Assembly: GCA_965656375.1 (NCBI GenBank)
Contig: CBFHKH010000001.1
Coordinates: 13,432 to 77,431 of the forward strand
Length of the DNA stretch: 64,000 nt
Origin: Minisyncoccia bacterium
GTDB taxonomy: Bacteria > Patescibacteriota > Minisyncoccia > Phycocordibacterales > UBA9973
Reading direction: 5' to 3'
In this document: in pieces, positions 10,871 through 45,924 of the stretch
Layout of the letters: each line of letters starts with the position of its first letter
How positions within the stretch are numbered: position 1 is the first letter of the stretch
The notes under the pieces: generated by a model
The model's database searches: none
The model's input: the letters and a program-made list of their open reading frames with translations, nothing else
What the model was told of the DNA's origin: nothing
Program-made: the position numbers and the translations under genes

Positions 10871-11647
10871 ATGAGAGTGTATACCACTACTAAAAAAAGT
10901 ATTCGTTTTTACGTAATACTTTTTTTAGTAGCAAGCACTACTCTTATCCCATGTTTATCTGTAACTGCGTATGTCATGGGGAGTGGTGCGTATCAAATTC
11001 AATCTGATAGCATTAACGTCGGAGGACTCTCGTCAACATCTACAAACTATGGTCTCAATGATACGCAAGGAGAGGTAGGAACAGGCTACTCAAACAGTTC
11101 AAATTATTATATGCATGCCGGGTACTGGCAGATACAAGATAGTTATATATCAATTTCTTCACCTGCAGATATCGCACTCTCTTCTATCTCTGGACTTACT
11201 GGTGGCGGTTCAGAAGGAACTGCAGCATGGACTGTTATTACTGATAATGTGGCAGGATATTCAATGACGATACAGACGAGCACTACTCCAGCACTCAAAT
11301 CGACCTCCGATTCATTTGCAAACTACACACCGAGTGGTGGGAATCCTGATTATCTATTTACGAATGCATCAGCGAATTCTTCATTTGGGTTTTCACCAGA
11401 AGGTTCTGATGTAATTACTCGCTTCAAAGATAACGGTTCAGCATGTAATACTGGAACGTCCGAAACTAGCTCTCGCTGTTGGGATGGATTATCAACGAGC
11501 GCGGCAAATATTGCAGGAAGTAGTACCAGTAACCACCCAGGTGGCACGCCTACCACGGTTCGCTTCAGAGCTGAATCAGGAGCAACTCATATACAGACCG
11601 CTGGTGCGTACTCTGCGACTGTAACGGTAACAGCAACTACGCTATAA
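10871..11647 (+). CDS. Secreted beta-rich surface protein, WxL-domain-like (paralog 2)
   Basis: Internal ATG start with a signal peptide. Motifs AAWTV...GYSMTIQTSTTPAL and the C-terminal AGAYSATVTVTATTL parallel the 9201-9860 protein. Confidence 0.5.
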   Translation: MRVYTTTKKSIRFYVILFLVASTTLIPCLSVTAYVMGSGAYQIQSDSINVGGLSSTSTNYGLNDTQGEVGTGYSNSSNYYMHAGYWQIQDSYISISSPADIALSSISGLTGGGSEGTAAWTVITDNVAGYSMTIQTSTTPALKSTSDSFANYTPSGGNPDYLFTNASANSSFGFSPEGSDVITRFKDNGSACNTGTSETSSRCWDGLSTSAANIAGSSTSNHPGGTPTTVRFRAESGATHIQTAGAYSATVTVTATTL

Positions 11648-11654
11648 TACAGTA

Positions 11655-13604
11655 ATGAAATCTCTATACCGGACACTTCCTCTTTCTATAGTCATCCTTT
11701 TTGCCAGTATAAGCATTGCTTCTGCTGCAACGAGCACTTTCCCAGTACGTCTCAATGTCCAAGGATGTAACAATAACGGTATCTGTGAAGCAGTGCTCGG
11801 CGAAGACACTAGCAGTTGTCCAGCTGATTGCCATACAGGACCTCCTGGCGATGATGGTGGGGGTGGTGGAGGTTCTCCAAACTATTTTTATGACATACGA
11901 GTAACTCCGACGCAAACAGGTGCGTATTTTGATTGGAAGAGTCGATTTCCTGCACTCTCAACGCTCAAGTGGGGACTAACGACTGATTATGCGCTTGGCT
12001 CTACCCAAGAAACAATGTATTCTGCAACGCATACATCTTTTATTCAAAATTTACTAACTAATACTCGCTACTATTTTAAAATCGAAGGTCAAAATACTGA
12101 TCGTACTACAGTTCCAGCATATGTTAGTTTTTTTAATACCCTCCGCGTTCCTGATGATACACGACCGTCTCCTCCAACAGATTTTATAGCTACACCAAAC
12201 ATCGCTACGAATACCATCACTCTTACTTGGCACAATCCAACTGATTCTAATTTTAATTATGTACGTATAGTGAGAAACAGGGAGACAGGGAATACAAGTC
12301 CATTCCTTGGCCAGATTATATATGAGGGAAATCTTGAGTACGCAATAGATAGAGATATCTTTGTATTTACTCGATATTTTTATACTATTTTTGCCCGCAC
12401 AACAGAGGGCGAATTTTCTTCTGGTGTTGAAGCAAACGCTATGGTGAGTCCTATTTCTATTGATCAGTGTATCCTCAATCCGTCATCATGTGTGCCACCT
12501 CCGAATCCATGCACACTCAATCCATCATCATGTATTAATCCACCAGACCCATGTCTCTCAAATCCTTCGTTATGCACCACTCCACCTACAGATCCATGCC
12601 TAGCAGCTCCGTCACCATGCACTACAGAGCCTATCGATCTACCAGTTAAAGAAGTACCAAATATCGTAACCCTTACTCCGTCTATTGCTGTTGGTCTCAG
12701 TGTCTTACTCTCAACACTATCCGCATTGCTTTCAGGATCATTTGCATTTGGAGAAATAGGATTCTTACTCTTACGATTGTGGTCACTTCTCCTCATTGCA
12801 TTTGGACTCAAGAAACGTACTCCACCGTGGGGTGTCGTGTATGATAGCGTTACCAAGCAACCACTTGATCCGGCGTATGTCGTTCTTCTTGATAAGAATG
12901 GAAATGAAGTTGCAAGTTGTATTACAGATTTGGATGGACGATACGGATTCGTAGCAGAGCCTGGAGTCTATACAATCGTTGCTACCAAAACTAATTATTC
13001 ATTTCCATCTAGAAAGCTCCATGGCATGAGAGGGGATGAGCTCTATGGTAATTTATATTTTGGTCACGATATCGAAATTACAAAAAGTGGATCAATCATT
13101 GCAAGTAATATTCCGCTCGATCCTATTAACTTCGACTGGAACGAATTTGCGAAAAGAGATCAGCATCTTATGAAATTCTTCAATGCTCGAGATGTGTGGC
13201 TCGGTAGACTTTCAAACGTACTATTTTGGGCAGGGTCACTGTTCTCTGTATATGCAGTTATCGTGAGCCCTACAGGGTACAATATCGCAATTGTAGGACT
13301 TTCTCTTTTTGTATATATACTGCGAACTCTTGGATTGCAGAGTTATCCAAAAGGATCAATTTTTGAAGGTCTAACTAAGAATCCGCTTCCATTCTCAATC
13401 TTGCGCGTCTACGGGGAAGGTAGTACAAACGAACTCTATCACAAAGTTGCTGATCGAACAGGTAGATATTATGCAATTGTGCCAAATGGTAAATATCGAG
13501 CTATAATTGAAAAGAAAAATGCCGATGAATCATATACAAAGATTCCAGTTTCTGAACCTGTTTCAGTAACCAGAGGCTATCTCAAAAAGAATTTTAAGAT
13601 CTAA
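11655..13604 (+). CDS. Polytopic membrane protein with a signal peptide, an FN3-like domain, a Cys-Pro-rich repeat linker, multiple TM helices and two carboxypeptidase-regulatory-like beta-sandwich domains
   Basis: The FN3-like region is PSPPTDF...TITLTWHNPTD...YVRIVR. There are six repeats of the form P-x-P-C-x-x-N-P-S-x-C. The hydrophobic stretches are LSVLLSTLSALLS and LLLRLWSLLLIAF. The CarbopepD_reg-like segments are GVVYDSVTKQPLDPAYVVLLDKNGNEV...DLDGRYGF and GRYYAIVPNGKYR. Confidence 0.55.
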   Translation: MKSLYRTLPLSIVILFASISIASAATSTFPVRLNVQGCNNNGICEAVLGEDTSSCPADCHTGPPGDDGGGGGGSPNYFYDIRVTPTQTGAYFDWKSRFPALSTLKWGLTTDYALGSTQETMYSATHTSFIQNLLTNTRYYFKIEGQNTDRTTVPAYVSFFNTLRVPDDTRPSPPTDFIATPNIATNTITLTWHNPTDSNFNYVRIVRNRETGNTSPFLGQIIYEGNLEYAIDRDIFVFTRYFYTIFARTTEGEFSSGVEANAMVSPISIDQCILNPSSCVPPPNPCTLNPSSCINPPDPCLSNPSLCTTPPTDPCLAAPSPCTTEPIDLPVKEVPNIVTLTPSIAVGLSVLLSTLSALLSGSFAFGEIGFLLLRLWSLLLIAFGLKKRTPPWGVVYDSVTKQPLDPAYVVLLDKNGNEVASCITDLDGRYGFVAEPGVYTIVATKTNYSFPSRKLHGMRGDELYGNLYFGHDIEITKSGSIIASNIPLDPINFDWNEFAKRDQHLMKFFNARDVWLGRLSNVLFWAGSLFSVYAVIVSPTGYNIAIVGLSLFVYILRTLGLQSYPKGSIFEGLTKNPLPFSILRVYGEGSTNELYHKVADRTGRYYAIVPNGKYRAIIEKKNADESYTKIPVSEPVSVTRGYLKKNFKI

Positions 13605-14123: not shown

Positions 14124-17100
14124 ATGGAATCTTTAATTAAAAACGTAAAAAAAACTGTTGTTAAAAAAAAGATCTCTGTAGTATTTCTTGTGCTACTCAT
14201 AGTTTTCTCAATCTCATACTCCGCTACGAACGCAGCATTTAATAAACAAATAAATTACCAAGGAAAACTTACAACATCTGTAGGGGTGGCTGTTGCAAAT
14301 GGAACATATAACATGGAGTTCAAACTCTATACTGTAAGTTCTGGTGGAACTGCTGTATGGACAGAAACAAGAACTGGTGCTGATAAAGTTCAAGTGACAA
14401 GCGGACTTTTCTCAGTACTTCTTGGTGAAGTAACATCACTCTCAGGAGTCGACTTCAATCAGACGCTTTATCTAGGAGTCAACATCGGAGGTACTGGTTC
14501 TCCAGCTTGGGATGGAGAAATGACTCCACGAAAAAAATTGGGTGCTGTACCTGCTGCAGTAGAAAGTGAACGGGTGGGTGGCTTTACACCTGCGCAATCA
14601 GCGAGTGGAAGTCAAATCCCAGTGCTCACATCTGATGCGATTATTTTAAGTGGTAGCGCAGCAGGCCTTACTGGCACATCTGCAAATGTTCTCAAGCTTC
14701 AAGGTGGATCGACGGGCGATATACAGTTTTTTGGAGCAACAAATAAAATTTCAAATGCTGGTATGCTTACACTTGCTGGAGGCATTACTGTCACGCCCTT
14801 CACTGCTGCAAACGGCGTCGTCTATGCCACAAGTTCTGGGGTACTTACACAAACTGCTGCATCATCCGGTGCATCATGTCTCATCTCAGCATCGGCTGGT
14901 GCTGCACCGACGTGGGGAGCGTGTACGGCTGGAGGATACTGGTCCCGTTCTGGAACCACAGTCAGTCCGAGTACAATTACCGATAAAGTAAATATCGGCA
15001 ATGCAACAGATCAGGGAAGTTACATATTGCAAGTCACCGGAGATCAGTACCTCGATGGAAAACTTCATCTAAAAAATACTGATATTCAAGAAATGGGAAC
15101 GCGATCCATTTCAATCGGGGCAGATATACCAAGTGTCACGGACAGCTTCTTTTTTGGACAAAATGCTGCAACTTCTGCAACTGGAGCGAGCAACTCAAAT
15201 TTTTTAGGTAACAACGCAGGATATACTGCTACGTATGCTCAAAACTCAAACTTTTTGGGCAATAGAGCAGGGTACGCTGCAACTTCTGCAAGTGGTTCAA
15301 ATTTCTTTGGTTATAGTGCTGGAGAAAGCGCATCCTCTGCAAGTGGTTCAAATTTTTTTGGTACTAGTGCTGGAAACGGAGCTACTAGCGCTGCCGAATC
15401 GAACTTCCTAGGCTCATATGCAGGCGGCAGTGCGTCGTCAGCTTCATTTTCAAACTTTTTAGGATACGCAGCCGGCTATCAGGCAACGAGCGCACTCCGC
15501 TCAAACTTTTTCGGTAATAGCGCAGGACAAGGTGCTTCAAATGCGTCGTATTCAAATTTTATAGGATACTTGGCTGGAAAAACTTTTTCGGGAAATAATG
15601 TCGGGTCAAACAATATAATCATCGGTACCAACATTTCTCTTCCAAATGCTGCTGCAAATTCCATCAATATCGGAGGAATCCTTTTTGGAACCGGTACCTA
15701 TGCAACTACGACAGGTAATGCATCGATTGTTCCAGTTGCGGCAGGAAATATTGGTATCGGCGTAGTATCCCCGACAGCTCGCCTTCATCTTGCAGCAGGT
15801 ACTGCCACTGCAAACACTGCTCCGCTTAAATTTACAACTGGTACGGCACTTACCACGCCTGAAGACGGATCAGTAGAATATCACAGCTCACACTTATACT
15901 TTACAATTGGTTCGACTCGATATCAGCTTGACCAACAAGCAGCCGGAGGAGGAGTGCATCTTGATCAGATAGCTGCAGCGCTTGCTTCTAATGGATCGGG
16001 TATTGATAACTTAAACTATGCACAAACCTGGAATTGGTCTACCGCTACAACTCAAACCCCACTCACACTCACTGCAAACGGTTTAACAACGGGAAGTATC
16101 CTCTCCCTTACTTCAAGTTCTGCTTCAGCAACAACTGGTCAGAAAGGATTGAATGTTGCACTTACTGGTGCACTCACTGGAGCACAGACAACCTATGGTG
16201 GATATTTCTCAAATGCTCGTACTGGTGCAAGTGCGGTTAATGTCGGTCTCTATGCAACTGCATCGGCAGCAGGTACAAACTATGCTGCAATCTTTGATCA
16301 AGGGAATGTGGGGATTGGGACGACGACACCTGCTTCTAAATTAGATATTGCGGGAACCATTACTACCAACGGAGACACTGTCTCAAATCTGGTAGCCACG
16401 GTGAGTAATATGAATGGCGGTACTCTATATGGTTCAAAGATTGCGCTCACTGCTGGAAGCGGTGCAGGTGCAGGTGGGGCGATTGTAGCAAATAACATCA
16501 GTACGACCTTGTCTGGAACTACCAACTTACCAAGTAGTATTGTTGGTTTGGCAACTCAGACTAATCACGGAGCGGCGTCAGGTACCCTCACAAACCAGGT
16601 TGAATATCAGACAGGACCTTCAGTGACAGGTGGTGCGACAACGACAACATTGCAGCATATCAGCTTGAGAGATGTCTTTACTTCAACAGGAGGTACGGTT
16701 ACCAACCAATACGGCCTGTACATCAATGGATTAACTGCCGCAGCTACTAACTACGGCATATATTTTGCAAACACACCCAATGGTGGCTCGATTACTTCTG
16801 GTGCTTCAACAGACATCGCAATTATACCTGGTGCTGGTGGCAACGTCGGTATAGGTGACACAACTCCAGCGTCACTCTTCACCGTCGGTTCAGGTGACCT
16901 ATTCCAGATCAACTCTTCTGGTAATGTCGCTGCTATAGGCGGCGCGGCACATACGATTGCAAATTCTTCTGGTGCACTCAGCATTGATGCTGCATCCTCA
17001 GGTGCCTTGAATTTGAACAACACAGGAACCGGCGACGTTCTCCTTGCAGGAGGTTCAGCAGCAACAGGTTGTACGGTTGCAAACTCAACTGGAAACCTCA

Positions 17101-20100
17101 CGTGTTCTGGTAACATCATCGGTGGAACTACTGGTACTATCGGCTACTGGGCACGTAACAATTCTACTTTTACCCTCACTCCTGCAACTGCAAACGACAT
17201 AATTTCAATTTCAACAAATTTAACCACTGCATCCAACAAAGCAATCGAAGGCCTCCAGACTGGCGCGACATCTGGCACGGACTACGCCGGCTATTTCTCA
17301 AACACTGGCGCAGCCACAACAAATGTTGGTTTGTATGCGACTGCAAGTGGAGGAACGAACAACTACGCAGCGATATTTGACCAAGGGAATGTTGGGATTG
17401 GGACAACGACACCAAATGCTTCATATGAATTACAAATAGGAAATGGTTCAGGGTCAGCTACAGGGCGAATCCTTCTTAGTGGAAATGGTGATGATGAACA
17501 TATAATGTTTGCTAATAGTGGAGGTAACCGCTTTCGGATTGGTCAAAACGGAACGGTTCTTGGCTTCGTAAGCCAAGGAACTGGTGTTGGAGGTGTCGGG
17601 CAGTCATTCTTATTTACTGGTGGTACTCCTGATACGAGTCACCAAGGTTCCTTGTTTAAGATAAGTGGTACATTTAATCAGGCAGCACAGGTAACTGATG
17701 GCTTGCTTGTAAATATTACTAACACTGCTTCAGCTGCTGGTTCGAGTCTTGCTAATTTCCAAATCGGAGGCTCTTCAAAATTCTTTATTGATGCCAATAA
17801 CGGCAACGTCGGTATCGGGACGGCAACACCAGGACAAAAATTACAAGTTGAAGGTGATGTTAGTATCACTCGTTCATCGTTTTCTAGTACTCATCAAATT
17901 CAAATAAACAATGGAGGTAATACTATCGGTATCGGTTTTAATTCACCTGTCTCAACTCTCGACATTATTGGTTCAAGTGGAAGCCAGGCATACATTGTTT
18001 CTAATAATGCTGCGCTTAATGTCGGTAACCGCTCAACGGGACCAATTAATTTTGTCACACAGAGCGCTTCAGGAACAAAATGGCAAATAACTTCAGCTGG
18101 TAACTTTATTACTGGTGCTGACAACAGTTACGATATAGGAGCAAGTGGTGCAACAAGACCTAGAACTGGATATTTCGGTAGCACTGTCGTTGTAGGTGCA
18201 TCTCAAATTAAAACACTCTCATCAACAGGCTATTATGTGGCTACGAGGGGTTCATTGCAAAATCCATCTGATGGTGTTTGGCTAATTACTGATGCAGCTG
18301 AAACAAGTTTCGGTCGCCTTCAACTTGGCGGGACTACATCTAGTTTCCCAGCAATCAAGCGAAACGGTACAGCAATAAACTTCAGGCTCGCTGATGACTC
18401 GGCCGACACTACAATCACCGCATCTGGCGCGACGCTCTCGACAGCTCCGACTACTTCTGCGGGAAGTTACGACATCATCACTCGAAACTCTTCAACTGGA
18501 GTATTAGAAAAAATATCTAGCACTGCTATGCCAGGTGGATCAGGTACCACAAACTATGTTGCTCGTTGGACGGGAACAAATACACTTGGCACTGGAGTAC
18601 TCTATGATAACAATACAAGTGTTGCTATTAGTGATACATCGACTGATAGTGTCGGGGCAAAATTATTCGTTAATGGTGCAATCTCGGCAGTAGGAACTAT
18701 CAGATCATTTGCTGCGAAAGATACTTATAATGTTGCTATCAGTTCAAACAGTATCAATGCCTATAACTATACTAACCCTAGCGGCCAAGGACTCAGTATT
18801 TTGAATGTGAGTACGGGGAATCTCGCTTTAGTAGGCGGAGGCGGAAACGTTGGCATCGGCAATGCTTCCCCATCGGGACTTCTCTCGCTCGCTGGCAACC
18901 GTACTGCTTTAGCGTGGGGCACAACAGGTATTAATTTTCAGACTGCTGCAGCGACTTACACTGACAGTTCGTCTTCAGGAACAGTTGCAAGCGTAGTTGC
19001 AAATTCTTTTGGAGTTCCAACATTCGCAGCATCATCAGCGACGACATACACTGCTGCATCAAATGTCTACATCGCTGGAGCACCAAGTGCTGGGACTAAT
19101 GTCACGATCACAAAAGGATACGCGCTTGATGTTAATGGTCCAACAAGAATAAAAACAAACTCTGGAAGCGCAACAGGACTAACGCTCACAAGTACTGGAA
19201 CTATAAACTGGAGATTTGGAAATGTGGCGACAAATGATTTTGGTCTATTTGCTCCAACAAGTGCAGGTGGAGAAGTTGCACTCCTTAACTTTACAGATTA
19301 TACCGACGCTTCTGTGCCAGTTTTGAGATTTGGAGGAGGTATTGCTGCATATGGATTCAATCCATATTGGGGCATTAATACAACGGGTGCAGGTACAAAC
19401 TATAGTAGTGATTTTGTTGTGAAGTCTTTTGGATCAACTCATGTGACTTCGGTTTCTAATTCCTCGAATGTACTTACACAGTGGGTTAATAGTAATGGTG
19501 ATGGATACTTTGCAGGCAACGTAGGTATTGCGAATACAAGTCCGACAGCGAAGCTTGATATAACATCGACCCAGACAGCGACAGCGAACAGCCAAGTGCT
19601 CGGAGTCAATCTAACAGGAACACTTACTGCACGTGCTACTGCGTCAGATACGCTCTATTCGATGCGCAACACTCAAGTATTAACTGCTGCGGCGAACAAT
19701 CAAAATCTTGTCGGATTGTCTATTGCTCCTACTTATTCTTTAGGAGCTTTTACTGGAACAACTATGTTCCCCCTTGATGTTGTAGGCTCTGCAGGCGCAA
19801 GAGTTAGAGTCAAAGCATTATCAAACGGCAATGTTGAATTACAAGTAGGTGATCCTACAGGAGGTGGCAATGGTGGCAATATAAGATGGTTACGTCCTTC
19901 TGGTGGCGCAGATGGACCAACAATATCTTTCGGTAATGCTGACTTAGCTTTCGATAATCCAGGTTATGGAGGATTTGTATTTACCGCTACTTTAGGAGCT
20001 TCTATGTCTGTATTAAAATTAACAAATACTCCTTATGCAGCAGGTACAGCTACAACTAATCATCCATTATTTTATAGAAATGGCGGTACAGCACCGACGA

Positions 20101-23100
20101 CATGGAGTACAGCCGGTACGTACGACGGATGGAACGCGGTATCTGGATTTACTGGGAACTTCTTGGATGCTCACGTAAACGGAGGAGCGAGTGTCTTCAG
20201 TGTCGACTACACTGGCAAGGTCAATGGCTCAGGGGCGAATTTCTCTGGTCTCACCGCATCATCTGCTGTCTATACAGACGGTTCAAAAAATCTCACCTCA
20301 AGCGCGCCAAGTTCTGGCACCATCGGTTACTGGGCGCGAACTGGAACTCAACTTTCACCTGCATCAATTGGTGACGAAGTAAATATTGGAAATACAACTG
20401 ATCAAGGTGCGTATACACTTCAGAATACAGGGAACTTTTATAATAGTGGCTCAATCGTACAAGTCAGTCCAAGCTTCACAGGTACTCACACCATTGCGTT
20501 TAGTGCTAACAATCAAATAACTTTTACAAATAGTGGAATCGGTGCGTACATGGTAGTAGGAGCAGGTAACTTTGTTGACTTCCAGGGGCAGTCAGTTAGA
20601 TCTACTGGTCGTGGATATATTGCGGGCTCAACAGTAGCAGGAACTTCTCCATTTTCTATAAGCACTGTTCCGGCACAATCATCTGGTACGACTGATAACA
20701 ACTCAATATCAATTACTCAGACGATAAACAACACTGGAACATATTCTGGAGTGTATCGAGGATTTTACTACAATCCGACACTTACATCCCTCACTGGTAC
20801 GACACATCGAGCAATTGAAACGGTAACAGGCGATGTAATCTTAGGTAGTACTAGTGGTAATGTTGGAATCGGGAACCCTACTCCTTTTAGCGGTGCAACT
20901 GTCGCACCATCACTAGAAATCGGAACAACAGGCACAGCAAGTGGTAACCTTATTGTTCGAGGATTTTCAGCACTTGGCAGTACACAAGCTAACGGTTTTG
21001 GTGCGGTTGGTTCAAACTACTATTTGGATTCTTCTAATGCTATACGCAGAAAAAATGGAGATTTCGTATCTGTCCTTGAGTTTCCATCAGGAGGATTTGC
21101 ATTCAAAACATCAGGGAATGGGGCAGCTAACTCTAGTGTGTCACTAACAACTCTCTGGAATATTGCAGCAAGTGGAAATATTACCGCTGGTACTGATAAT
21201 GCATATGATATCGGCGCAAGTGGAGCGAACCGAGCAAGGGACTTCTTTTTAGGAAGAGATGCGGTAATAGGTAGGAACTTTACTATTACAAACGGAAATA
21301 TAAATGCAACGAGTTCTCTCACATCTATAGCAGGTTCAGGTAACGGAAATCTATTTACAACAAATCATACAGTCAATACTTCAGCCTCATATCTTGGTAC
21401 GAACTTCCTTTCAAATGTATCCACTGCTTCAGGTGCCGGTGGAACTGTTGTTGCCCAGCAAGCAACAGTAAACTACTCTGCAACAGCAAATCATATTTCA
21501 GGTATAACTGGGTATCAAATTGATGTTAATCATACGGGTAGTGGAACATTATCGTCTGTATCAGGATTGGTTTCTCAAGGATTTGTTGGAAACAGTGCAA
21601 CAGTATCAAATTATTATGCATTTAAAACACTCGGATTGTTTACCCCGGCGACAGGTGCGGTCACTACTCAGTACGGATACTATTATGACCAAGCATATAT
21701 CACACCTGGTATAGGCTACGCATTTTATTCAAAAGTAAATCCGTCAGGAGGAACACTTGCATCTGCTGCTTCAACTGCTATTAGTATTATCCCTGGTAAT
21801 AGTATTATTCAGATTGGAGGTCAAACCTCCTCATTTCCAGCGTTAAAGCGAAACGGTACGGCAATAAACTTCAGATTGGCGGACGATTCTGCAGATGCGG
21901 CGATCACTGCTTCTGGTGCTACATTCTCTGGCCTTGGAGGTGGGGGTACTCAATGTGTGCAGACAAACAATACGGGAGTACTCTCGGCAGCAGCGTGTGG
22001 TGGAGGTGCGACTCGTCTCGATCAAATCACTGCTGCAACAGGAACTAACAGTATCGACTCGCTCAACTTCGATCAAACATGGAATTGGTCCACTGCTTCT
22101 ACCAGCAGTCCAATGACGCTCACTGCAAACGCTCTTTCGAGTGGCTCACTTCTCACACTTTCTTCAAATAGTACACAGGCAAGTGGAGGTAGCCAGTCAT
22201 TATTGAAAATTGATCTTTCAGGTGCGAATGCAAATACTGGAGAATCTACTTTTGGTGCTAATATATCGAACGGTCACACTGGGACTTCGGGAACTAATTA
22301 TGGAGTAAATTCTATTGCGTACGGTGGGGATACTAATTACGGTTTGTATGCTAGTGGATCTGGAAACGGAACTCAGAATATCGGTGTTGGCGCTGATGCG
22401 TATACTACTAACAATGCTACGGAAAATATTGGACTCATGGCTACTGCTTCAGGAGGTCTGCTAAATTACGCTATCATTGTCCCTCCTACCTACGGTAATG
22501 TTGGTATCGGAAATAGTGCTCCAGGAAGTTTACTTACTGTAGGTTCATCATCACAGTTTAGTGTCACCTCTGCTGGTGTAACCACTATTACTGCATCAAG
22601 TTCCAGTGCATTTACTGTTGCAAAGACTGGAACTAATTATGCGCTCCAAGTTGATACATCAACCGGTTCTGCGGTAACAGGGCTCAAGATTAAAAATAAC
22701 GCAGCCACCGGTGGTGTAGCACTCTCAGCTATTTCTTCAGGTACCAATGAATTCCTCACACTCGACGCAAAAGGAACAGGTGAAGTTCGTATTGGTGGTA
22801 TCTCTACGGGCGACGTTCTCCTTGCAGGAGGTTCAGCAGCAACAGGTTGTACGGTTGCAAACTCAACTGGAAATCTGACCTGTTCCGGCAACATCATCGG
22901 TGGAACTACTGGTACTATCGGCTACTGGTCTCGCTCAGGTACTACACTTACTCCTGCAACAGGAAATGATATCCTCTCAATCCCAACTACAAATACATCT
23001 GGTGCAGACCTTGCAATCACAAACACTGGTGCATATACAGGTACAGGAATATTCAATCTCACTGCAAACTCAGCAACGACGGGTACACTTGCGAGTATTT

Positions 23101-25289
23101 CATCATCATCACTGACCTCAGGTATGCTTGCAAAATATCTTCTCTCAGGATCATCAGCAGTTGCTACTGCCGCAAATTCTGGTTCTATTGCGACATTTGC
23201 TTCAACTGCGACTGGATTTACCGCTGCAACGCAGGCACTTGTCGCCGTGAATTCAAGTGGAACAAACGGAACTACTGGTGTAACAATTCAAGGTATTAAT
23301 TCTACGGTGACGAATGCAGGTACTACGAGTACCAATGTTGCGGGCTTCTTCAGTGCATCAGGTGGAACGAACAACTATGCGCTTATCGTGCCTTCAGGAG
23401 GAGGAAGAGTGGGTATAGGAACAAGTACTCCAACTGCTACGCTCTATGTCACTCAAGCTGCTATGACCTCAGTCGGTTCAGGAAGCGGTACGAACAATAT
23501 TGCGCCGCTTACGATTCTTGGAGGAGCAGGCGGTGCTACTTCTGCAACGTCAGGAACGGTGTTTGGAGGTAATGCTGGTGCTATAAATCTTACTGGTGGA
23601 AATGGTGGAGCTATTACTGGTACCCCAGGTACAGGCTTCGGTGGTAACGGAGGAACGATTAATCTTACTGGAGGAGATGGAGGACTCGGTACGACATTTG
23701 GTGGAGCTGGTGGAAACGTCGAAATTGCAGCTGGCGTTGGAGGATTTTCAACCGGTGTATCAGGAGTGGGAGGATATGCTGCACTTAAAGGAGGGAATGG
23801 TGGCTCGACGAATGGGACTGGTGGCAATGTCTACTTGATCGGTGGAGCAAAAAGTGGTTCTGGATCCGACGGTAATATCTACTTGAATGTTTCACCATCA
23901 CTCACTGTCCGCGGACTCACTGGTATCGGTACAACAAACGCAGTCTATCGTCTTGATGTTCTCAATGACGCCGCAGGACAAACTACATCAAATCGCATCG
24001 CGAACTTCTCAAATGCTGGAGCAACATTCAATACAACGAGTGGAGCGCTCTTGTCCTATGGAGGATATTTCTCCTCGACATCAACTCGATCAACCGGAGC
24101 AAATGATTTGAACAACGTAGCTCTCTATGCGACTGCTTCTGGTGCGCAGAATAACTACGCGGCGATCTTTGATCAGGGAAATGTTGGTATCGGAACCGCA
24201 ACTCCGAACACCTCTTTGCATATCCTTGGCACTCCAAACGTTAATGCTGGTCTCCTTAAGTTACAGGCAAAGACGGGAAGCGGCGAAGATGATGCTGGCA
24301 TCACCTTTTTTGCCATGCCGTCAGGCGCAGATACCAACTCCCGCAACTGGCAGATCGCAAATAACTACCAAGCATACGGCAACTTGGATATAATGCGTAG
24401 CACTTCTAATACAGGGAATCCTACTACTGCTGTCGCATCGTTTGATATGAACGGTAACTTCGGTATCGGTGATACAACACCGGACTACTTGCTTGATGTT
24501 GCTAACACAGGAGTAGACAATAATATCTTTTCTTTAACAGACTCGGACGGAGAGTGTCTCTATAATCCAGAGGCTGGTTCAGTCACGGTTACGTGCTCAT
24601 CAGATGAGCGTCTAAAGAATAATATTGTTGATGCTCCTTCGGCGCTTGCATACTTTAAATCATTCAAAATAAGACAATACAACGTTAGAGCATCTGGTGA
24701 CAGAATGATTGGAGTCATTGCACAAGAAGTATTACAAACAAACCCAGAGCTTGTAACAGTGAGCCCAAGTGGAATGTACTCAGTGCAGTTGCCGAGTCAG
24801 TGGCAAGTAGTGGGAGCGTTACAAGAACTCGATCTTAAAATCGCAGGACTTTCATCGCTTGATACGATGAATAATAATTCGATAGGATATTTAATTAAAA
24901 GCTTTTTGGCCGATGTAGGGAACACTATAGAGAGTATATATGCAAAAGTAATTCATTCTGACCGTATTGAGACGAAAACGCTTTGTGTTGGAAGTACGTG
25001 TGTTACTGAAGAGCAATTCTTGCAAATGGTACAGGGAGCTGGCGGTCAAAATTCTGGTGGTGGAAATGGTGGCAGTGGAGGAGGAAATCTGCCACCAACT
25101 CCACAGACCGACGTCTGTCCAAATATAGATGGTGATCAAGCTATCGTTCCAGATGAAATGCATATTGATCAAGACAACAATTGTGTAGCAAATCCGTCTA
25201 CAGAGGGGGGTGAATCAACTCCTCCAGCTACAGATGGCGAAAGCACAGGTGACGGGGAAAGTACACCACCAGTTACTGACGGGCAATAG
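14124..25289 (+). CDS. Giant (3,721 aa) Gly/Ser/Thr/Asn/Ala-rich surface fiber-like protein. It has an N-terminal signal/anchor, beta-helix-type repeats and a C-terminal phage tail-spike-type intramolecular chaperone (peptidase S74) autocleavage domain.
   Basis: A single uninterrupted 11.2 kb ORF. The N-terminal hydrophobic segment is ISVVFLVLLIVFSI. There are tandem 17-aa SNF(L/F)G..AG repeats. The motif GN(V/I)GIGTTTP...KL recurs at least 10 times. There are Gly-rich GGNGG stretches. The C-terminus carries CSSDERLKNNIV...IGVIAQEVLQTNPELV. Confidence 0.8.
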   Translation: MESLIKNVKKTVVKKKISVVFLVLLIVFSISYSATNAAFNKQINYQGKLTTSVGVAVANGTYNMEFKLYTVSSGGTAVWTETRTGADKVQVTSGLFSVLLGEVTSLSGVDFNQTLYLGVNIGGTGSPAWDGEMTPRKKLGAVPAAVESERVGGFTPAQSASGSQIPVLTSDAIILSGSAAGLTGTSANVLKLQGGSTGDIQFFGATNKISNAGMLTLAGGITVTPFTAANGVVYATSSGVLTQTAASSGASCLISASAGAAPTWGACTAGGYWSRSGTTVSPSTITDKVNIGNATDQGSYILQVTGDQYLDGKLHLKNTDIQEMGTRSISIGADIPSVTDSFFFGQNAATSATGASNSNFLGNNAGYTATYAQNSNFLGNRAGYAATSASGSNFFGYSAGESASSASGSNFFGTSAGNGATSAAESNFLGSYAGGSASSASFSNFLGYAAGYQATSALRSNFFGNSAGQGASNASYSNFIGYLAGKTFSGNNVGSNNIIIGTNISLPNAAANSINIGGILFGTGTYATTTGNASIVPVAAGNIGIGVVSPTARLHLAAGTATANTAPLKFTTGTALTTPEDGSVEYHSSHLYFTIGSTRYQLDQQAAGGGVHLDQIAAALASNGSGIDNLNYAQTWNWSTATTQTPLTLTANGLTTGSILSLTSSSASATTGQKGLNVALTGALTGAQTTYGGYFSNARTGASAVNVGLYATASAAGTNYAAIFDQGNVGIGTTTPASKLDIAGTITTNGDTVSNLVATVSNMNGGTLYGSKIALTAGSGAGAGGAIVANNISTTLSGTTNLPSSIVGLATQTNHGAASGTLTNQVEYQTGPSVTGGATTTTLQHISLRDVFTSTGGTVTNQYGLYINGLTAAATNYGIYFANTPNGGSITSGASTDIAIIPGAGGNVGIGDTTPASLFTVGSGDLFQINSSGNVAAIGGAAHTIANSSGALSIDAASSGALNLNNTGTGDVLLAGGSAATGCTVANSTGNLTCSGNIIGGTTGTIGYWARNNSTFTLTPATANDIISISTNLTTASNKAIEGLQTGATSGTDYAGYFSNTGAATTNVGLYATASGGTNNYAAIFDQGNVGIGTTTPNASYELQIGNGSGSATGRILLSGNGDDEHIMFANSGGNRFRIGQNGTVLGFVSQGTGVGGVGQSFLFTGGTPDTSHQGSLFKISGTFNQAAQVTDGLLVNITNTASAAGSSLANFQIGGSSKFFIDANNGNVGIGTATPGQKLQVEGDVSITRSSFSSTHQIQINNGGNTIGIGFNSPVSTLDIIGSSGSQAYIVSNNAALNVGNRSTGPINFVTQSASGTKWQITSAGNFITGADNSYDIGASGATRPRTGYFGSTVVVGASQIKTLSSTGYYVATRGSLQNPSDGVWLITDAAETSFGRLQLGGTTSSFPAIKRNGTAINFRLADDSADTTITASGATLSTAPTTSAGSYDIITRNSSTGVLEKISSTAMPGGSGTTNYVARWTGTNTLGTGVLYDNNTSVAISDTSTDSVGAKLFVNGAISAVGTIRSFAAKDTYNVAISSNSINAYNYTNPSGQGLSILNVSTGNLALVGGGGNVGIGNASPSGLLSLAGNRTALAWGTTGINFQTAAATYTDSSSSGTVASVVANSFGVPTFAASSATTYTAASNVYIAGAPSAGTNVTITKGYALDVNGPTRIKTNSGSATGLTLTSTGTINWRFGNVATNDFGLFAPTSAGGEVALLNFTDYTDASVPVLRFGGGIAAYGFNPYWGINTTGAGTNYSSDFVVKSFGSTHVTSVSNSSNVLTQWVNSNGDGYFAGNVGIANTSPTAKLDITSTQTATANSQVLGVNLTGTLTARATASDTLYSMRNTQVLTAAANNQNLVGLSIAPTYSLGAFTGTTMFPLDVVGSAGARVRVKALSNGNVELQVGDPTGGGNGGNIRWLRPSGGADGPTISFGNADLAFDNPGYGGFVFTATLGASMSVLKLTNTPYAAGTATTNHPLFYRNGGTAPTTWSTAGTYDGWNAVSGFTGNFLDAHVNGGASVFSVDYTGKVNGSGANFSGLTASSAVYTDGSKNLTSSAPSSGTIGYWARTGTQLSPASIGDEVNIGNTTDQGAYTLQNTGNFYNSGSIVQVSPSFTGTHTIAFSANNQITFTNSGIGAYMVVGAGNFVDFQGQSVRSTGRGYIAGSTVAGTSPFSISTVPAQSSGTTDNNSISITQTINNTGTYSGVYRGFYYNPTLTSLTGTTHRAIETVTGDVILGSTSGNVGIGNPTPFSGATVAPSLEIGTTGTASGNLIVRGFSALGSTQANGFGAVGSNYYLDSSNAIRRKNGDFVSVLEFPSGGFAFKTSGNGAANSSVSLTTLWNIAASGNITAGTDNAYDIGASGANRARDFFLGRDAVIGRNFTITNGNINATSSLTSIAGSGNGNLFTTNHTVNTSASYLGTNFLSNVSTASGAGGTVVAQQATVNYSATANHISGITGYQIDVNHTGSGTLSSVSGLVSQGFVGNSATVSNYYAFKTLGLFTPATGAVTTQYGYYYDQAYITPGIGYAFYSKVNPSGGTLASAASTAISIIPGNSIIQIGGQTSSFPALKRNGTAINFRLADDSADAAITASGATFSGLGGGGTQCVQTNNTGVLSAAACGGGATRLDQITAATGTNSIDSLNFDQTWNWSTASTSSPMTLTANALSSGSLLTLSSNSTQASGGSQSLLKIDLSGANANTGESTFGANISNGHTGTSGTNYGVNSIAYGGDTNYGLYASGSGNGTQNIGVGADAYTTNNATENIGLMATASGGLLNYAIIVPPTYGNVGIGNSAPGSLLTVGSSSQFSVTSAGVTTITASSSSAFTVAKTGTNYALQVDTSTGSAVTGLKIKNNAATGGVALSAISSGTNEFLTLDAKGTGEVRIGGISTGDVLLAGGSAATGCTVANSTGNLTCSGNIIGGTTGTIGYWSRSGTTLTPATGNDILSIPTTNTSGADLAITNTGAYTGTGIFNLTANSATTGTLASISSSSLTSGMLAKYLLSGSSAVATAANSGSIATFASTATGFTAATQALVAVNSSGTNGTTGVTIQGINSTVTNAGTTSTNVAGFFSASGGTNNYALIVPSGGGRVGIGTSTPTATLYVTQAAMTSVGSGSGTNNIAPLTILGGAGGATSATSGTVFGGNAGAINLTGGNGGAITGTPGTGFGGNGGTINLTGGDGGLGTTFGGAGGNVEIAAGVGGFSTGVSGVGGYAALKGGNGGSTNGTGGNVYLIGGAKSGSGSDGNIYLNVSPSLTVRGLTGIGTTNAVYRLDVLNDAAGQTTSNRIANFSNAGATFNTTSGALLSYGGYFSSTSTRSTGANDLNNVALYATASGAQNNYAAIFDQGNVGIGTATPNTSLHILGTPNVNAGLLKLQAKTGSGEDDAGITFFAMPSGADTNSRNWQIANNYQAYGNLDIMRSTSNTGNPTTAVASFDMNGNFGIGDTTPDYLLDVANTGVDNNIFSLTDSDGECLYNPEAGSVTVTCSSDERLKNNIVDAPSALAYFKSFKIRQYNVRASGDRMIGVIAQEVLQTNPELVTVSPSGMYSVQLPSQWQVVGALQELDLKIAGLSSLDTMNNNSIGYLIKSFLADVGNTIESIYAKVIHSDRIETKTLCVGSTCVTEEQFLQMVQGAGGQNSGGGNGGSGGGNLPPTPQTDVCPNIDGDQAIVPDEMHIDQDNNCVANPSTEGGESTPPATDGESTGDGESTPPVTDGQ
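15194..15601 (+). repeat. Eight tandem in-frame 51-nt (17-aa) coding repeats, S-N-F-(L/F)-G-x-x-A-G-x-x-A-T/S-x-A-x-x, inside the giant gene
   Basis: The units SNFLGNNAGYTATYAQN, SNFLGNRAGYAATSASG, SNFFGYSAGESASSASG, SNFFGTSAGNGATSAAE, SNFLGSYAGGSASSASF, SNFLGYAAGYQATSALR, SNFFGNSAGQGASNASY and SNFIGYLAGKTFSGNNV follow one another directly. Confidence 0.7.
17031..17150 (+). repeat. 120-nt intragenic segment duplicated at 22809-22928 at about 96% nt identity (copy A)
   Basis: Both copies encode GDVLLAGGSAATGCTVANSTGNLTCSGNIIGGTTGTIGYW. There are 5 mismatches in 120 nt. Confidence 0.75.
22809..22928 (+). repeat. Copy B of the 120-nt intragenic duplication
   Basis: See copy A. A second, more diverged duplicated module at about 80% nt identity pairs 18343-18435 with 21831-21925 (SSFPA(I/L)KRNGTAINFRLADDSAD..ITASGAT). 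Confidence 0.75.
24590..25000 (+). other. C-terminal intramolecular chaperone / autoproteolysis domain (peptidase S74, phage endosialidase / tail-fiber type) of the giant protein
   Basis: It matches the conserved core S-D-x-R-L-K-x-N-I...(A)QEV...P..V and the following helical segment (LQELDLKIAGL...IESIYAKV). By analogy the scissile Ser is expected directly before DERLK. Confidence 0.6.
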
Positions 25290-42562: not shown

Positions 42563-43297
42563 ATGGATATAAGCATCATCATTCCTGCATATAATGAAGA
42601 GAAGCGAATCAAAAAGACGCTTGATGCTGTTTCAAGCTTTCTCCGTACAAGGAACATGGCATTTGAAATAATTGTTGTTGCCAATAACTGTACTGATAAC
42701 ACCGTTTCGCTTCTTGAGAATCTTAAAGAAAGCTCAATTCCAGAACTTGTAATTATAAACATTCCTCATGAAGGTATAGTCGGAAATACAAAAGGCTACG
42801 CTGTCGAAGTGGGCATGAGAGCTGCCAGGGGAGCATGGCATCTTTTTATTGACGCTGATAATGCGACTCGGTTTACAGAAGTACTTGAGTTTCTGAAATA
42901 TGGTTGTGGTGGATACGATGTGATTATCGGCTCGCGGTATATTTCCGGGGCTCATGTAGTAAAGAAACAGCCACTGTATCGTATTATATTGTCGCGTGTG
43001 AGCAACCTTTTGATTCGCCTCGTTCTTCTTCCTGGTATCTACGATACACAGTGTGGATTTAAAATGTTCCGAAAAGATGTGTCAGAAAAGATTTTTTCCC
43101 GTACGACCATCGAGGGTTGGGGAGCAGATCTCGAAATGCTTGCAATCGCTCGAGTATGGAAATTCAAGATAAAAGAAGCTCCGGTCTATTGGGAGGCGCA
43201 AGATGAATCTACCGTACGGTCACATGCCTTCTTCTATACACTCAAGGAGTTATTTGTTATACGTCATCGTGTACTGAAAGGGGATTATAAAAGATAA
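42563..43297 (+). CDS. Family-2 glycosyltransferase, polyprenyl-phosphate sugar synthase type (GtrB/DPM1-like)
   Basis: Motifs ISIIIPAYNEE, FIDADNAT and GSRY are present. Confidence 0.8.
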   Translation: MDISIIIPAYNEEKRIKKTLDAVSSFLRTRNMAFEIIVVANNCTDNTVSLLENLKESSIPELVIINIPHEGIVGNTKGYAVEVGMRAARGAWHLFIDADNATRFTEVLEFLKYGCGGYDVIIGSRYISGAHVVKKQPLYRIILSRVSNLLIRLVLLPGIYDTQCGFKMFRKDVSEKIFSRTTIEGWGADLEMLAIARVWKFKIKEAPVYWEAQDESTVRSHAFFYTLKELFVIRHRVLKGDYKR

Positions 43298-43338
43298 AAC
43301 AAAACACTCACATCTAAATGTGAGTGTTTTGTTTTATC

Positions 43339-43413
43339 TGGAGCCGCTTCTCAGACTCGAACTGAGGACCTTCGCTTTACAAAAGCGTTGCTCTACCAAC
43401 TGAGCTAAAGCGG
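43339..43413 (-). tRNA. tRNA-Thr (anticodon UGU)
   Basis: The reverse complement folds as a cloverleaf. The acceptor stem is GCCGCTT / AAGCGGC. The D arm is GCTC-AGTTGGTA-GAGC. The anticodon loop is TTTGTAA. The T arm is CTCAG-TTCGAGT-CTGAG. The discriminator is T and CCA is encoded. Confidence 0.85.
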
Positions 43414-43462
43414 CAATATAATATCTATCCTAACACCTTGTCTAAATTTACCAAAGCCGACG

Positions 43463-43512
43463 ATTCTGTCGGCTCCCCGACTGTACCTGCGTCGGGGCTG
43501 AGCTAAAGCGGC
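43463..43512. repeat. Composite intergenic repeat: one arm of the rpsB-leader palindrome (ccgacgattctgtcgg), a 7-bp hairpin (ccccgac-N9-gtcgggg), and an exact 15-nt copy of the tRNA-Thr 5' end (gccgctttagctcag on the - strand)
   Basis: The 29-nt stretch at 43461-43489 is the exact reverse complement of 45694-45722. The string gagctaaagcggc recurs at 43498-43510 and at 43401-43413. Confidence 0.55.
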
Positions 43513-43522
43513 GTATATGATT

Positions 43523-43948
43523 TTATACCTGTTCTTCTGTCTTTTGGGTTTCCTGCCCATGCTCTCGTTTTACTCGTTCCTTTATCCTTTTGATCTTCGC
43601 TTTTGACTCTATTACAGTACGCTTTACGAATGAAGGGGATCGAGGTTCTGTACTAGGCGTATTCGTTTTAAACAAAGAATGTGCCTTTGGCCATTTTCCA
43701 ACAATCCATTTCTTAGCCTTTGTTGTCAGTATGAACCAGTACTTTGCACAGGTAAGGACTATTCCTTGTACGATGTGCTTCGTCAAATATAGCATACTTT
43801 TTTCTACCTGTCTAAAGGACACTTCAGGTGTTCGCCTTTCTGTTCTTTCGGGTACGATACGGTTGGTCCGTATCTCCCATGCACGAAAGGCGAGCATCCC
43901 AAATGCAAAAATTATAGCTATAAAGAAAATAATGAAAGTGATGATCAT
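43523..43948 (-). CDS. Hypothetical membrane-anchored basic protein, co-transcribed downstream of tsf
   Basis: There is an N-terminal TM (IITFIIFFIAIIFAFGMLAF) and a Lys/Arg/Glu-rich C-terminus. The start is 2 nt after the tsf stop. Confidence 0.45.
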   Translation of the reverse strand: MIITFIIFFIAIIFAFGMLAFRAWEIRTNRIVPERTERRTPEVSFRQVEKSMLYLTKHIVQGIVLTCAKYWFILTTKAKKWIVGKWPKAHSLFKTNTPSTEPRSPSFVKRTVIESKAKIKRIKERVKREHGQETQKTEEQV

Positions 43949-45668: not shown

Positions 45669-45683
45669 ATTCTCTGTGCCCCG

Positions 45684-45719
45684 ACGATTCTGTCGGGGAG
45701 CCGACAGAATCGTCGGCTT
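45684..45719. repeat. Perfect 16-bp palindrome, ccgacgattctgtcgg-ggag-ccgacagaatcgtcgg, in the rpsB 5' leader. It is 15 nt upstream of the rpsB start codon on the - strand.
   Basis: Read directly from the sequence. One arm plus flank recurs in inverted orientation at 43461-43489. Confidence 0.6.
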
Positions 45720-45924
45720 TAATTATAATATCCTGCTTTCGATGCAGGTGTTCCGTTTTTAAGCATTCCAGCTTATCTACAAGGTCCTTTTTAATAAAAA
45801 ACTTCTGCCTTATCGGCAGACAGGCCTCACGGAACGTAGGACCATAATACCAGAAAAACCATTATTCTGCAAGTCTTTATTTTATTCAGTTTTTTGACCT
45901 AAAGGCTTTTTTAGAGTAGTATAA

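Follow-up and report, generated by a model that had tools for sequence, protein, structure and literature searches.

The rpsB-tsf region of a Minisyncoccia bacterium (Bacteria; Patescibacteriota; Minisyncoccia; Phycocordibacterales; UBA9973) carries, beside its tRNA-Thr(UGU) gene, a second copy of the first 15 nucleotides (nt) of that gene. The region lies in a stretch of 64,000 nt referred to here as the window (contig CBFHKH010000001.1 of GenBank assembly GCA_965656375.1, positions 13,432 to 77,431). We propose that the 15-nt copy is the orphaned front of a tRNA gene that a 43-nt pair of hairpins, designated element E, has split within the D-loop. The same layout would define a widespread family of selfish nuclease cassettes, apparently not described before, which invade and rebuild the tRNA genes of Patescibacteria. 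We put the probability of this interpretation at about 0.7. The module in the window has the appearance of a degenerate cassette relic that lost its nuclease gene, and as such it probably has no nuclease activity.

Coordinates are positions within the window, and the tRNA locus is read on the minus strand, which is the tRNA sense strand (Table 1). ARAGORN and Rfam agree on a single tRNA in the window, the tRNA-Thr(UGU) gene at 43339-43414. At gathering thresholds Rfam reports nothing but tRNA in the window, and neither program calls a cloverleaf from the fragment and hairpins. The first 15 nt of the gene, GCCGCTTTAGCTCAG, occur exactly twice, at 43400-43414 and at 43498-43512, both on the minus strand, with a gap of 83 nt between the copies and a start-to-start distance of 98 nt. 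When up to two mismatches are allowed, shuffled sequence is expected to give 0.08 matches, and none of 100 shuffles reached two. The duplication reported in the original prediction, which was made from the sequence alone, is therefore real, although its second copy had been placed at 43496-43510, 2 nt from its actual position.

On the minus strand, the stop codon of ORF141 (the last open reading frame [ORF] of the rpsB-tsf operon) is followed by 10 nt, the orphan fragment a (15 nt), E (43 nt), a second fragment b (6 nt), a spacer X (34 nt) and the intact tRNA gene. Fragment a comprises the acceptor 5' strand, nt 8-9, the D-stem 5' strand and the first two bases of the D-loop, and it begins about where the related locus L004 starts its tRNA. 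The ccccgac-N9-gtcgggg hairpin previously noted as fused to the copy is present at 43475-43497; it is hairpin H2 of E, and the predicted RNA fold shows both H2 and the adjoining H1. Overlooked earlier was the sequence just beyond the hairpins, TTGGTA (43449-43454). It continues the tRNA with nt 16-21, so that the hairpin pair lies inside a copy of tRNA nt 1-21. E is thus placed at D-loop position 15/16 (CTCAG^TTGG) of a truncated upstream tRNA copy, with no target-site duplication; a and b are both 100% identical to the tRNA, whose intact copy lies 41 nt downstream. A terminator scan gives no call on this copy of E. Spacer X holds a sigma-70-like match, TAGACA-18-TATATT, that ends at tRNA position -1, and its 3' half has in common with the tRNA-Thr leader of locus L011 the 12-mer GTGTTAGGATAG (read directly). 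X occupies the position at which complete members of the family have a nuclease ORF.

Table 1. Features of the tRNA-Thr locus and of the rpsB leader in the window.
Feature	Coordinates	Strand	Basis
Intact tRNA-Thr(UGU), functional gene copy	43339-43414	-	ARAGORN; Rfam RF00005, 68 bits, full length
Fragment a, orphan copy of tRNA nt 1-15	43498-43512	-	exact match to tRNA-Thr start
Element E, two abutting GC-rich hairpins, 43 nt	43455-43497	-	model R1, 69.5 bits
E hairpin H2, CCCCGAC-GCAGGTACA-GTCGGGG (7-9-7 nt), abuts a directly	43475-43497	-	sequence read
E hairpin H1, AGCCGAC-AGAATC-GTCGGCT (GATTCT loop on plus strand), abuts H2	43455-43474	-	sequence read
Fragment b, TTGGTA, exact copy of tRNA nt 16-21 (D-loop)	43449-43454	-	100% identity
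Spacer X, 34 nt, between b and intact tRNA	43415-43448	-	sequence read; promoter scan
ORF141, conserved small ORF after tsf, last gene of the rpsB-tsf operon	43523-43948	-	no Pfam match
22-bp perfect hairpin just 3' of the tRNA, before a convergent glycosyltransferase gene; terminator-like	43292-43339	.	inverted repeat and terminator-like scan
Solo E, between rpsB -10 box and start codon, antisense to rpsB	45679-45718	+	model R1, 66.5 bits
Perfect 29-nt inverted repeat, right arm in the rpsB leader	left arm 43453-43481, right arm 45692-45720	.	inverted-repeat search

The module is not peculiar to this genome. A metagenome scan with a 20-mer from E, AGCCGACGATTCTGTCGGCT, matched 52 contigs, against ~2 estimated by hand for a random 20-mer, and nearly all of them hold the same two-hairpin unit. 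A covariance model, R1, was built on 34 distinct family members. Across the family the H2 loops vary freely, and two pairs of the H2 stem show double changes from C-G to U-A. By hand tally, E is flanked by tRNA sequence at ~22 non-redundant loci representing at least 12 tRNA species. The layout comprises the first 10-15 nt of the tRNA, E, the next 5-11 nt, a spacer of 12-105 nt and the intact tRNA gene. Fragment a always begins at tRNA +1 to within a few A/T bases, and b is always 5-11 nt long. We verified exact a and b copies of the neighbouring tRNA for Thr (CGU, GGU, UGU), Ala (UGC, GGC), Met, Ile, Pro, Phe, Gly, His and others. Insertion falls at ...CTCAG^TTGG (after nt 15) or at ...TAG^(C/T)TCAG (after nt 10), with the site YAG^T found both in the window and in the family. 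Duplication of the 5' end, which had been singled out as unusual, is a regular property of these loci.

Mirror forms exist as well, in which the intact gene is followed by a spacer, 6-11 nt, E and the complete 3' remainder. They are found at 5S rRNA genes (L125, L126, L117) and at tRNA-Val genes (L084, L120). At the three 5S loci (L125:1075-1521, minus strand; L126:3860-4221, minus; L117:509-860, plus), ATGATAG, E and the 3' part of 5S stand 180-255 nt after the intact gene; the partial 5S of L126 differs from the intact one by paired changes, CGGA..TCCG to CAAA..TTTG, with the helix kept. Solo copies of E lie in the 5' untranslated regions (5' UTRs) of leuS and rpsB and in the S10-L3 spacer. 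In addition to tRNA and 5S, Rfam finds 23S, tmRNA, group I introns and LOOT RNA in the loci outside the window, and no Rfam family matches E. Among viral contigs there was one match, to H1 only and in an unrelated AT-rich context, and the searched open-access literature holds no description of the element or of the cassette family.

Several copies depart from the common form. Four to five units of a tRNA-Ala 5' fragment plus E are packed into 1.6 kb upstream of tRNA-Ala(GGC) in L112 (3100-4780, plus strand), and in L120 (1-270, minus) an intact tRNA-Val is followed by tandem units of GCTCAG, E, tRNA-Val nt 16-76 and trailer. The minus strand of L106 holds three copies (10124-10173, 10513-10562 and 12133-12181) of a sister variant of E whose H1 loop reads CGAAGC instead of AGAATC. 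Other variants are found in L136 (AGCATC), in L138 (CCAGGGC) and, with stems of TCCCGAC, in L144 and L152; what they have in common is the core CCGAC...GTCGG, present twice. In L107 (10056-12272, plus; E at 11186-11231) and its orthologue L095, E is translated in-frame within a PurL-like ORF (FGAM synthase), where it contributes ~14-16 residues (NKADDSVGSPTKTSGE) flanked by conserved blocks, a behaviour similar to that of Rickettsia palindromic elements. The tRNA genes beside E in L130 (794-986) and L131 (2742-3057) carry group I introns (Rfam RF00028), and therefore host two kinds of mobile insert at once; the intron region of L131 encodes an HNH-like ORF.

What connects E to mobility is the content of the spacer. 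In fuller members the spacer is a gene for a stand-alone, single-domain GIY-YIG protein of 86-97 amino acids (aa) or, once, an HNH gene. The nuclease ATG lies 4-11 nt past b in every complete cassette, and the stop codon falls either at tRNA +1 or on the TAG of tRNA nt 8-10. One strand of L106 reads tRNA-Val2 nt 1-10, E, CTCAGT, an 87-aa GIY-YIG ORF, an intact and different tRNA-Val, 9 nt, E and tRNA-Val2 nt 11-76. All GIY-YIG ORFs (Pfam PF01541) in ~0.6 Mb of Patescibacteria loci adjoin E and a tRNA gene (L106, L120, L104). Reduced versions are found too. The spacer of L083 and L121 is an internally deleted remnant of the nuclease ORF, and at tRNA-Val the nuclease ATG of L084, compared with L120 and L136, is fused to the last four codons, a decay by internal deletion. 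In L122 the nuclease position is occupied by an HNH-like ORF at the Pfam threshold.

The same association appears when the proteins are taken as the starting point. A homologue search returned 142 small GIY-YIG proteins, most of them 85-97 aa long, and those with a named source are labelled Patescibacteria group. We examined the surroundings of six homologue clusters that were picked because their contigs were long or multiple, irrespective of E. Each of the six lies directly against a tRNA gene at its 5' end (Val-GAC, Pro-CGG, Phe-GAA, Thr-UGU twice and Val-UAC), and in five of them a-E-b immediately precedes the nuclease ATG. In the sixth, E lies in a mirror-form partial tRNA-Phe, with some contigs having it and others not. 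The nucleases match PF01541 and, more weakly over the same residues, T5orf172 (PF10544); TIGR01453 covers residues 2-39 only, far below its cut-off. Their best sequence matches in the PDB are the UPF0213 proteins 1ZG2 (E-value 3e-7) and 1YWL (E-value 1e-5), which are also of the same minimal, single-domain size. Stand-alone UPF0213/Slx1-like GIY-YIG proteins have been classed with the structure-specific Slx1 (PMC1564403), and by analogy with eukaryotic Slx1 the cassette nucleases might be tied to structure-specific cleavage. No mobile-element role or linkage to tRNA genes was found for UPF0213-type proteins in the searched open-access literature.

Relatives show the same chromosomal site in empty, relic and full states. 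Retrieval with Tsf gave 16 Patescibacteria loci (Paceibacteria, Nomurabacteria and similar) with Tsf 55-78% identical. Wherever the contig reaches, tRNA-Thr(UGU) comes next after rpsB-tsf-ORF14x, and only in L014 does it not share their strand; ORF141, the upstream border of the insertion site, has homologues at the same position in L001-L007, L144 and L152. E and a second exact 15-mer are missing from all 16 loci. The tRNA gene of L003 and L004 begins at most 10 nt from the stop codon of ORF14x, or overlaps that codon, and neither locus has the fragment or the hairpins. Since the fragment in the window occupies the tRNA start position of these two loci, the window carries ~98 extra nt. The original prediction had called for such a comparison, holding that conservation of the arrangement in all relatives would speak for a functional sequence; L003 and L004 lack it.

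Other relatives hold partial traces. L011 (~5220-5312) has an exact 17-nt copy of the tRNA-Thr 5' end followed by a different hairpin, CCCGCC-AGA-GGCGG, and L012 (~5190-5233) has a divergent 17-nt 5' copy, GCCGGAATAGCTCGGTT, that matches the tRNA of L011 and not its own; neither has E. L001 and L006 hold decayed a-b-like remnants, also devoid of E. Complete cassettes occupy the site in two further groups. In L144-149 (Hainich aquifer), rpsB-tsf-ORF137 is followed by GCCGCCTTAG, E', CTCAG, ATTT, an 86-aa GIY-YIG gene and 8 nt, and then by a second GCCGCCTTAG, E', CTCAG, 33 nt and tRNA-Thr(UGU). In L151-153 (Candidatus Nomurabacteria, GCA_002772925.1) the order is ORF139, GCCACCTTAG, E'', CTCAG, 8 nt, an 87-aa GIY-YIG gene and tRNA-Thr(UGU). 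Both groups have E after nt 10 and in the orientation opposite to the tRNA-side copy of the window, and because of these differences in insertion point and orientation we regard their cassettes as having arisen independently at a single hot spot.

The second unit of L144 has no nuclease gene, and its 33-nt spacer matches the 5' end of the nuclease gene at 25 of 32 positions, the first 13 exactly. To judge from its sequence, this unit (a-E-b-33 nt-tRNA) is a direct model for the window module, and since it adjoins a complete unit, we read the window module as a cassette that has degenerated. Presence and absence of the insert can thus be followed at one orthologous site, empty in L003 and L004, without a nuclease in the window, and full in L144-149 and L151-153. 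The same is seen elsewhere, in L120/L136 versus L084 and in L138/L142 versus L139-141/143. The rpsB-tsf-tRNA-Thr site has been struck at least three separate times in related lineages.

At some of these loci coding sequence runs into the tRNA gene. ORF14x and several GIY-YIG genes end at a TAG that is tRNA nt 8-10 (L003, ~4030-4055; L152, 1425-1445; L106, 10245-10260). Where coding genes overlap the tRNA 5' end in this way, the orphan fragment also supplies the last codons and the stop codon of the upstream ORF.

We infer a homing-like origin for these modules. The nuclease would break a naive tRNA gene near the DNA coding for the D-loop or D-arm, and repair of the break would copy the cassette, consisting of E and the nuclease gene, into the naive allele. 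Survivors would be only those products that regain a whole tRNA, which would leave a regenerated tRNA 5' part and an orphan 5' end (in mirror forms, the 3' part) beside E. Both classes of partial copy could be derived from the two-E composite of L106 by recombination between its direct repeats. In the window, the relic hairpins would now separate the rpsB-tsf-ORF141 transcript from the tRNA, for which X holds a separate promoter-like sequence. The leader and the rebuilt tRNA 5' part may have come in together, or may be ancestral, because the 3' half of X shares GTGTTAGGATAG with the leader in L011.

Several observations weigh against this interpretation. The window contains no nuclease ORF or detectable remnant (tblastn and jackhmmer found nothing of the GIY-YIG type near the tRNA), and past possession of one is argued from architecture only. 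An ungapped comparison of X with the GIY-YIG 5' ends of eight cassettes was not significant (p ~0.57). The nucleases are bare catalytic domains, nearest to UPF0213/Slx1-like proteins and not to the I-TevI/Seg types with DNA-binding domains, which leaves sequence-specific homing unproven. The rebuilt tRNA retains the presumed target, so that self-immunity is unexplained, as is the supply of the correct 5' part for each new tRNA species; the spacer is no recognisable duplicate of the upstream flank. Finally, orthologous tRNA-Ala loci (L090, L098, L111) keep a-E-b while the spacer diverges, a pattern easier to reconcile with selection or repeated conversion than with a dead relic.

The bare domain, the retained target and the conservation of a-E-b leave room for a structure-guided system in which E is the substrate of the nuclease, or for domestication of E. 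Retained a-E-b modules could have been domesticated, for example as immunity to re-invasion or as leader structures. A tentative extension, which we would not favour over its negation, is that E works together with the stand-alone Slx1-like (UPF0213-type) nuclease as a mobile system of two parts, of a type not described so far. The minimal nuclease would recognise or cut the extruded hairpin or the tRNA D-arm DNA, and would thereby spread the cassette into tRNA and 5S genes while rebuilding them. If true, this would give a role to a long-uncharacterised protein family and would amount to a new route of tRNA-gene turnover in Patescibacteria.

Two other derivations were considered. A tandem duplication of the leader together with the tRNA 5' end finds no support as a general origin, as the comparison of spacer and upstream flank reached p < 0.05 in only 2 of 15 loci, and the window gave p ~0.45. 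E as a tRNA intron, or as part of a split-tRNA system, was dismissed because an intact tRNA copy is always adjacent and because bacteria are not known to possess the splicing machinery.

An unlikely alternative is that a-E-b is a functional cis-element, acting in the transcript or the DNA, that selection maintains in the leaders of translation genes (for example a 5' or 3' stabiliser, processing site, terminator or insulator, or a decoy for the tRNA 5' strand), with the nuclease link secondary. At tRNA-Ala, a-E-b is unchanged but for one base in L090 and has a conserved promoter upstream, next to a divergent spacer; the sets of tRNA-Met and tRNA-Ile loci likewise keep a-E-b while spacers and H2 loops differ. 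The compensatory changes in the H2 stems beside freely varying loops, the solo copies in the rpsB and leuS 5' UTRs and the S10-L3 spacer, and the other hairpins that relatives have at the same rpsB position all agree with such a role, as do predicted folds far more stable than those of shuffled sequence (z = -3.8 and -5.5). However, E is absent from both window sites in relatives, it occurs in both orientations relative to transcription (rpsB copy, L144, L152), and it is read in-frame within the PurL-like ORF. It matches no Rfam family, and the terminator scan is silent on the tRNA-side copy. Its coupling to small nuclease genes is also tight and recurs repeatedly.

We likewise consider it improbable that E is a miniature element of the REP/PATE/RPE kind, moved at YAG^T by an unlinked transposase of the IS200/IS605 or RAYT type. 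On that account the tRNA duplications would be independent and would be the sole tolerated sites in RNA genes, and the nucleases would be separate neighbours. The missing target-site duplication, the terminal hairpins with a short target consensus, the insertions in both coding sequence and intergenic DNA, and the decayed a-b remnants without E in L001 and L006 would all suit such an element. Against this, clustering of the ORFs within 2.5 kb of 56 E copies revealed no shared transposase family, only housekeeping orthologues. The duplication junction is always 5-11 nt from E, which independent duplications do not predict, and the nuclease ATG follows E and b by 4-11 nt in every complete cassette.

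Partial tRNA duplications are the classical mark of att sites. The 15-nt copy could accordingly be an att scar, left by an integrase-mobilised island or prophage of which nearly everything has been deleted, as the original prediction had considered, and a large serine recombinase gene does lie 3' of the same tRNA in L144. We hold this to be very improbable. The duplicated end is 5' and not 3', only 83 nt separate the repeats, the ORFs scanned between 34 and 62.5 kb include no integrase or recombinase, and the identical micro-architecture with its 43-nt element recurs at 12 or more tRNA species. The earlier conclusion that no intact island is present stands. "Scar" is a fair word for the locus, while generic repeat-mediated rearrangement is not, since a defined module recurs at many tRNA genes. 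The recombinase of L144 (1870-3261, minus strand) is a 530-aa protein with Resolvase, Recombinase and Zn_ribbon_recom domains, encoded directly 3' of tRNA-Thr(UGU). Relatives show no synteny 3' of this tRNA, which would also suit an att scar, and for that reason the region may be a separate integration hot spot.

An assembly artefact arising from the hairpins and repeats is scarcely credible: two independent Logan contigs from run ERR15116721 (L134 and L081) end around the 34-nt spacer, at 43417 and 43457, and leave X outside both, but on either side they are 100% identical to the window, including the fragment and E beside ORF141, and dozens of unrelated assemblies show the same architecture. 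The contig ends could stem from a drop in coverage, from effects of the hairpins or from strain heterogeneity.

The cassette interpretation finds a parallel in fungal mitochondria, where endonuclease mobile ORFs bring a replacement gene end with them and leave the native end as a duplicate, with hybrids known for atp6 of Allomyces macrogynus and for atp6, atp9, cox2 and nad3 of Glomus (PMC3630166). There too, a free-standing endonuclease ORF (GIY-YIG or LAGLIDADG) sits in an essential gene with a replacement end on one side and an orphan native end on the other. The fungal cases differ in that they concern protein genes and the C-terminal end, whereas here tRNA and 5S rRNA genes are affected, usually at the 5' end. 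Moreover, a 43-nt double hairpin marks the junction here and the nuclease has only 86-97 aa. The fungal replacement is often divergent, whereas here the orphan and rebuilt parts are mostly identical, as in the window; divergent copies occur in L106 (Val2 versus Val1) and L012.

SegB of phages T4 and T6 offers a second comparison, being a GIY-YIG enzyme whose cuts in tRNA genes lead to segmental amplification and duplication by recombination (PMC13096335). It shares with the cassettes a free-standing GIY-YIG gene beside tRNA genes, and its activity duplicates tRNA-containing DNA. It is, in contrast, a phage enzyme with extra domains, and neither a hairpin element nor a split and regenerated tRNA has been described for it. 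The cassette nucleases match UPF0213-type stand-alone domains best. I-TevI and Seg-type enzymes in general join the catalytic domain to a C-terminal DNA-binding domain (~200-250 aa), which the 86-97-aa cassette proteins lack. Integrative elements that rebuild tRNA genes also insert in a tRNA gene, keep it intact through a carried copy and leave a partial duplicate. They do so with tyrosine or serine integrases, usually at the 3' end and over kilobases; here there is no integrase, the 5' end is used and the insert measures 0.1-0.4 kb.

REP/REPIN sequences and Rickettsia palindromic elements are short GC-rich palindromic repeats scattered in intergenic DNA. E resembles them as a short GC-rich palindrome that, like the Rickettsia elements, is sometimes in-frame in genes. 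It differs from both kinds in its low copy number (two in 64 kb), its bias to copies of structural-RNA genes, and its linkage to GIY-YIG and HNH genes rather than RAYT transposases.

The second copy of E in the window lies in the rpsB leader, 10 nt from the rpsB ATG. R1 matches span 43452-43500 (minus, 69.5 bits) and 45676-45721 (plus, 66.5 bits), and R1 found no further match elsewhere in the window or in L001-L016. Similarly, the 64 kb contain four CCGAC-N-GTCGG hairpins against 0.11 expected, all of them at these two sites. The link between the tRNA fragment and the rpsB-leader palindrome, pointed out earlier, holds in the form of a perfect inverted repeat of 29 nt that brackets the rpsB-tsf-ORF141 operon; it exists because the two arms are the shared part of two oppositely oriented E copies. 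The repeat had raised the idea of an invertible rpsB-tsf segment, or of a tyrosine-recombinase core site (7-6-7 nt). This was dropped, since two copies of a dispersed element account for the repeat, there is no recombinase nearby and the segment is oriented as in the ancestral synteny.

Upstream of rpsB, the promoter block CCTTGTAAA..GCTGGAATGCTTAAAAACGG..TATAATTAA (window 45719-45790) is conserved in L001-L007, and the upstream region of L010 is likewise. After this block the 5' UTRs of relatives hold differing GC-rich hairpins or hairpin pairs, L003 has none, and the window has E. The rpsB copy is flanked by TTAA^...^CACAG, similar to the TTAG^...^CTCAG that inverted E copies have as their tRNA target, and this similarity suggests a solo insertion at a look-alike of the tRNA target (TTAA^CACAG versus TTAG^CTCAG). 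In this copy (45681-45716) the loops of H2 (GATTCT) and H1 (AGAATC) are exact reverse complements of each other. The copy can thus adopt a single perfect stem of 16 bp instead (-31.5 kcal/mol, z = -5.5), a refolding peculiar to it among the family members examined.

For the window itself the consequence is modest, a relic and a 5' UTR copy that together form a 29-nt inverted repeat around an essential operon. The cassette family matters more widely. It accounts for a class of tRNA fragments that annotators would otherwise take as att scars, and it makes the tRNA genes of Patescibacteria recurrent targets of very small nuclease cassettes that survive by regenerating their target. Patescibacteria have tiny genomes with mostly single-copy tRNAs. 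The family also ties uncharacterised stand-alone GIY-YIG (UPF0213/Slx1-like) proteins to a DNA context, a CCGAC...GTCGG hairpin pair within D-loop-coding DNA of tRNA genes, and so yields a testable hypothesis on their substrate.

Exact-protein look-ups of ORF141, RpsB and P0068 returned no record. Elsewhere in the window, a single ORF of 3721 aa extends from 14124 to 25289 on the plus strand and is followed by ORFs of 1059 and 1214 aa.

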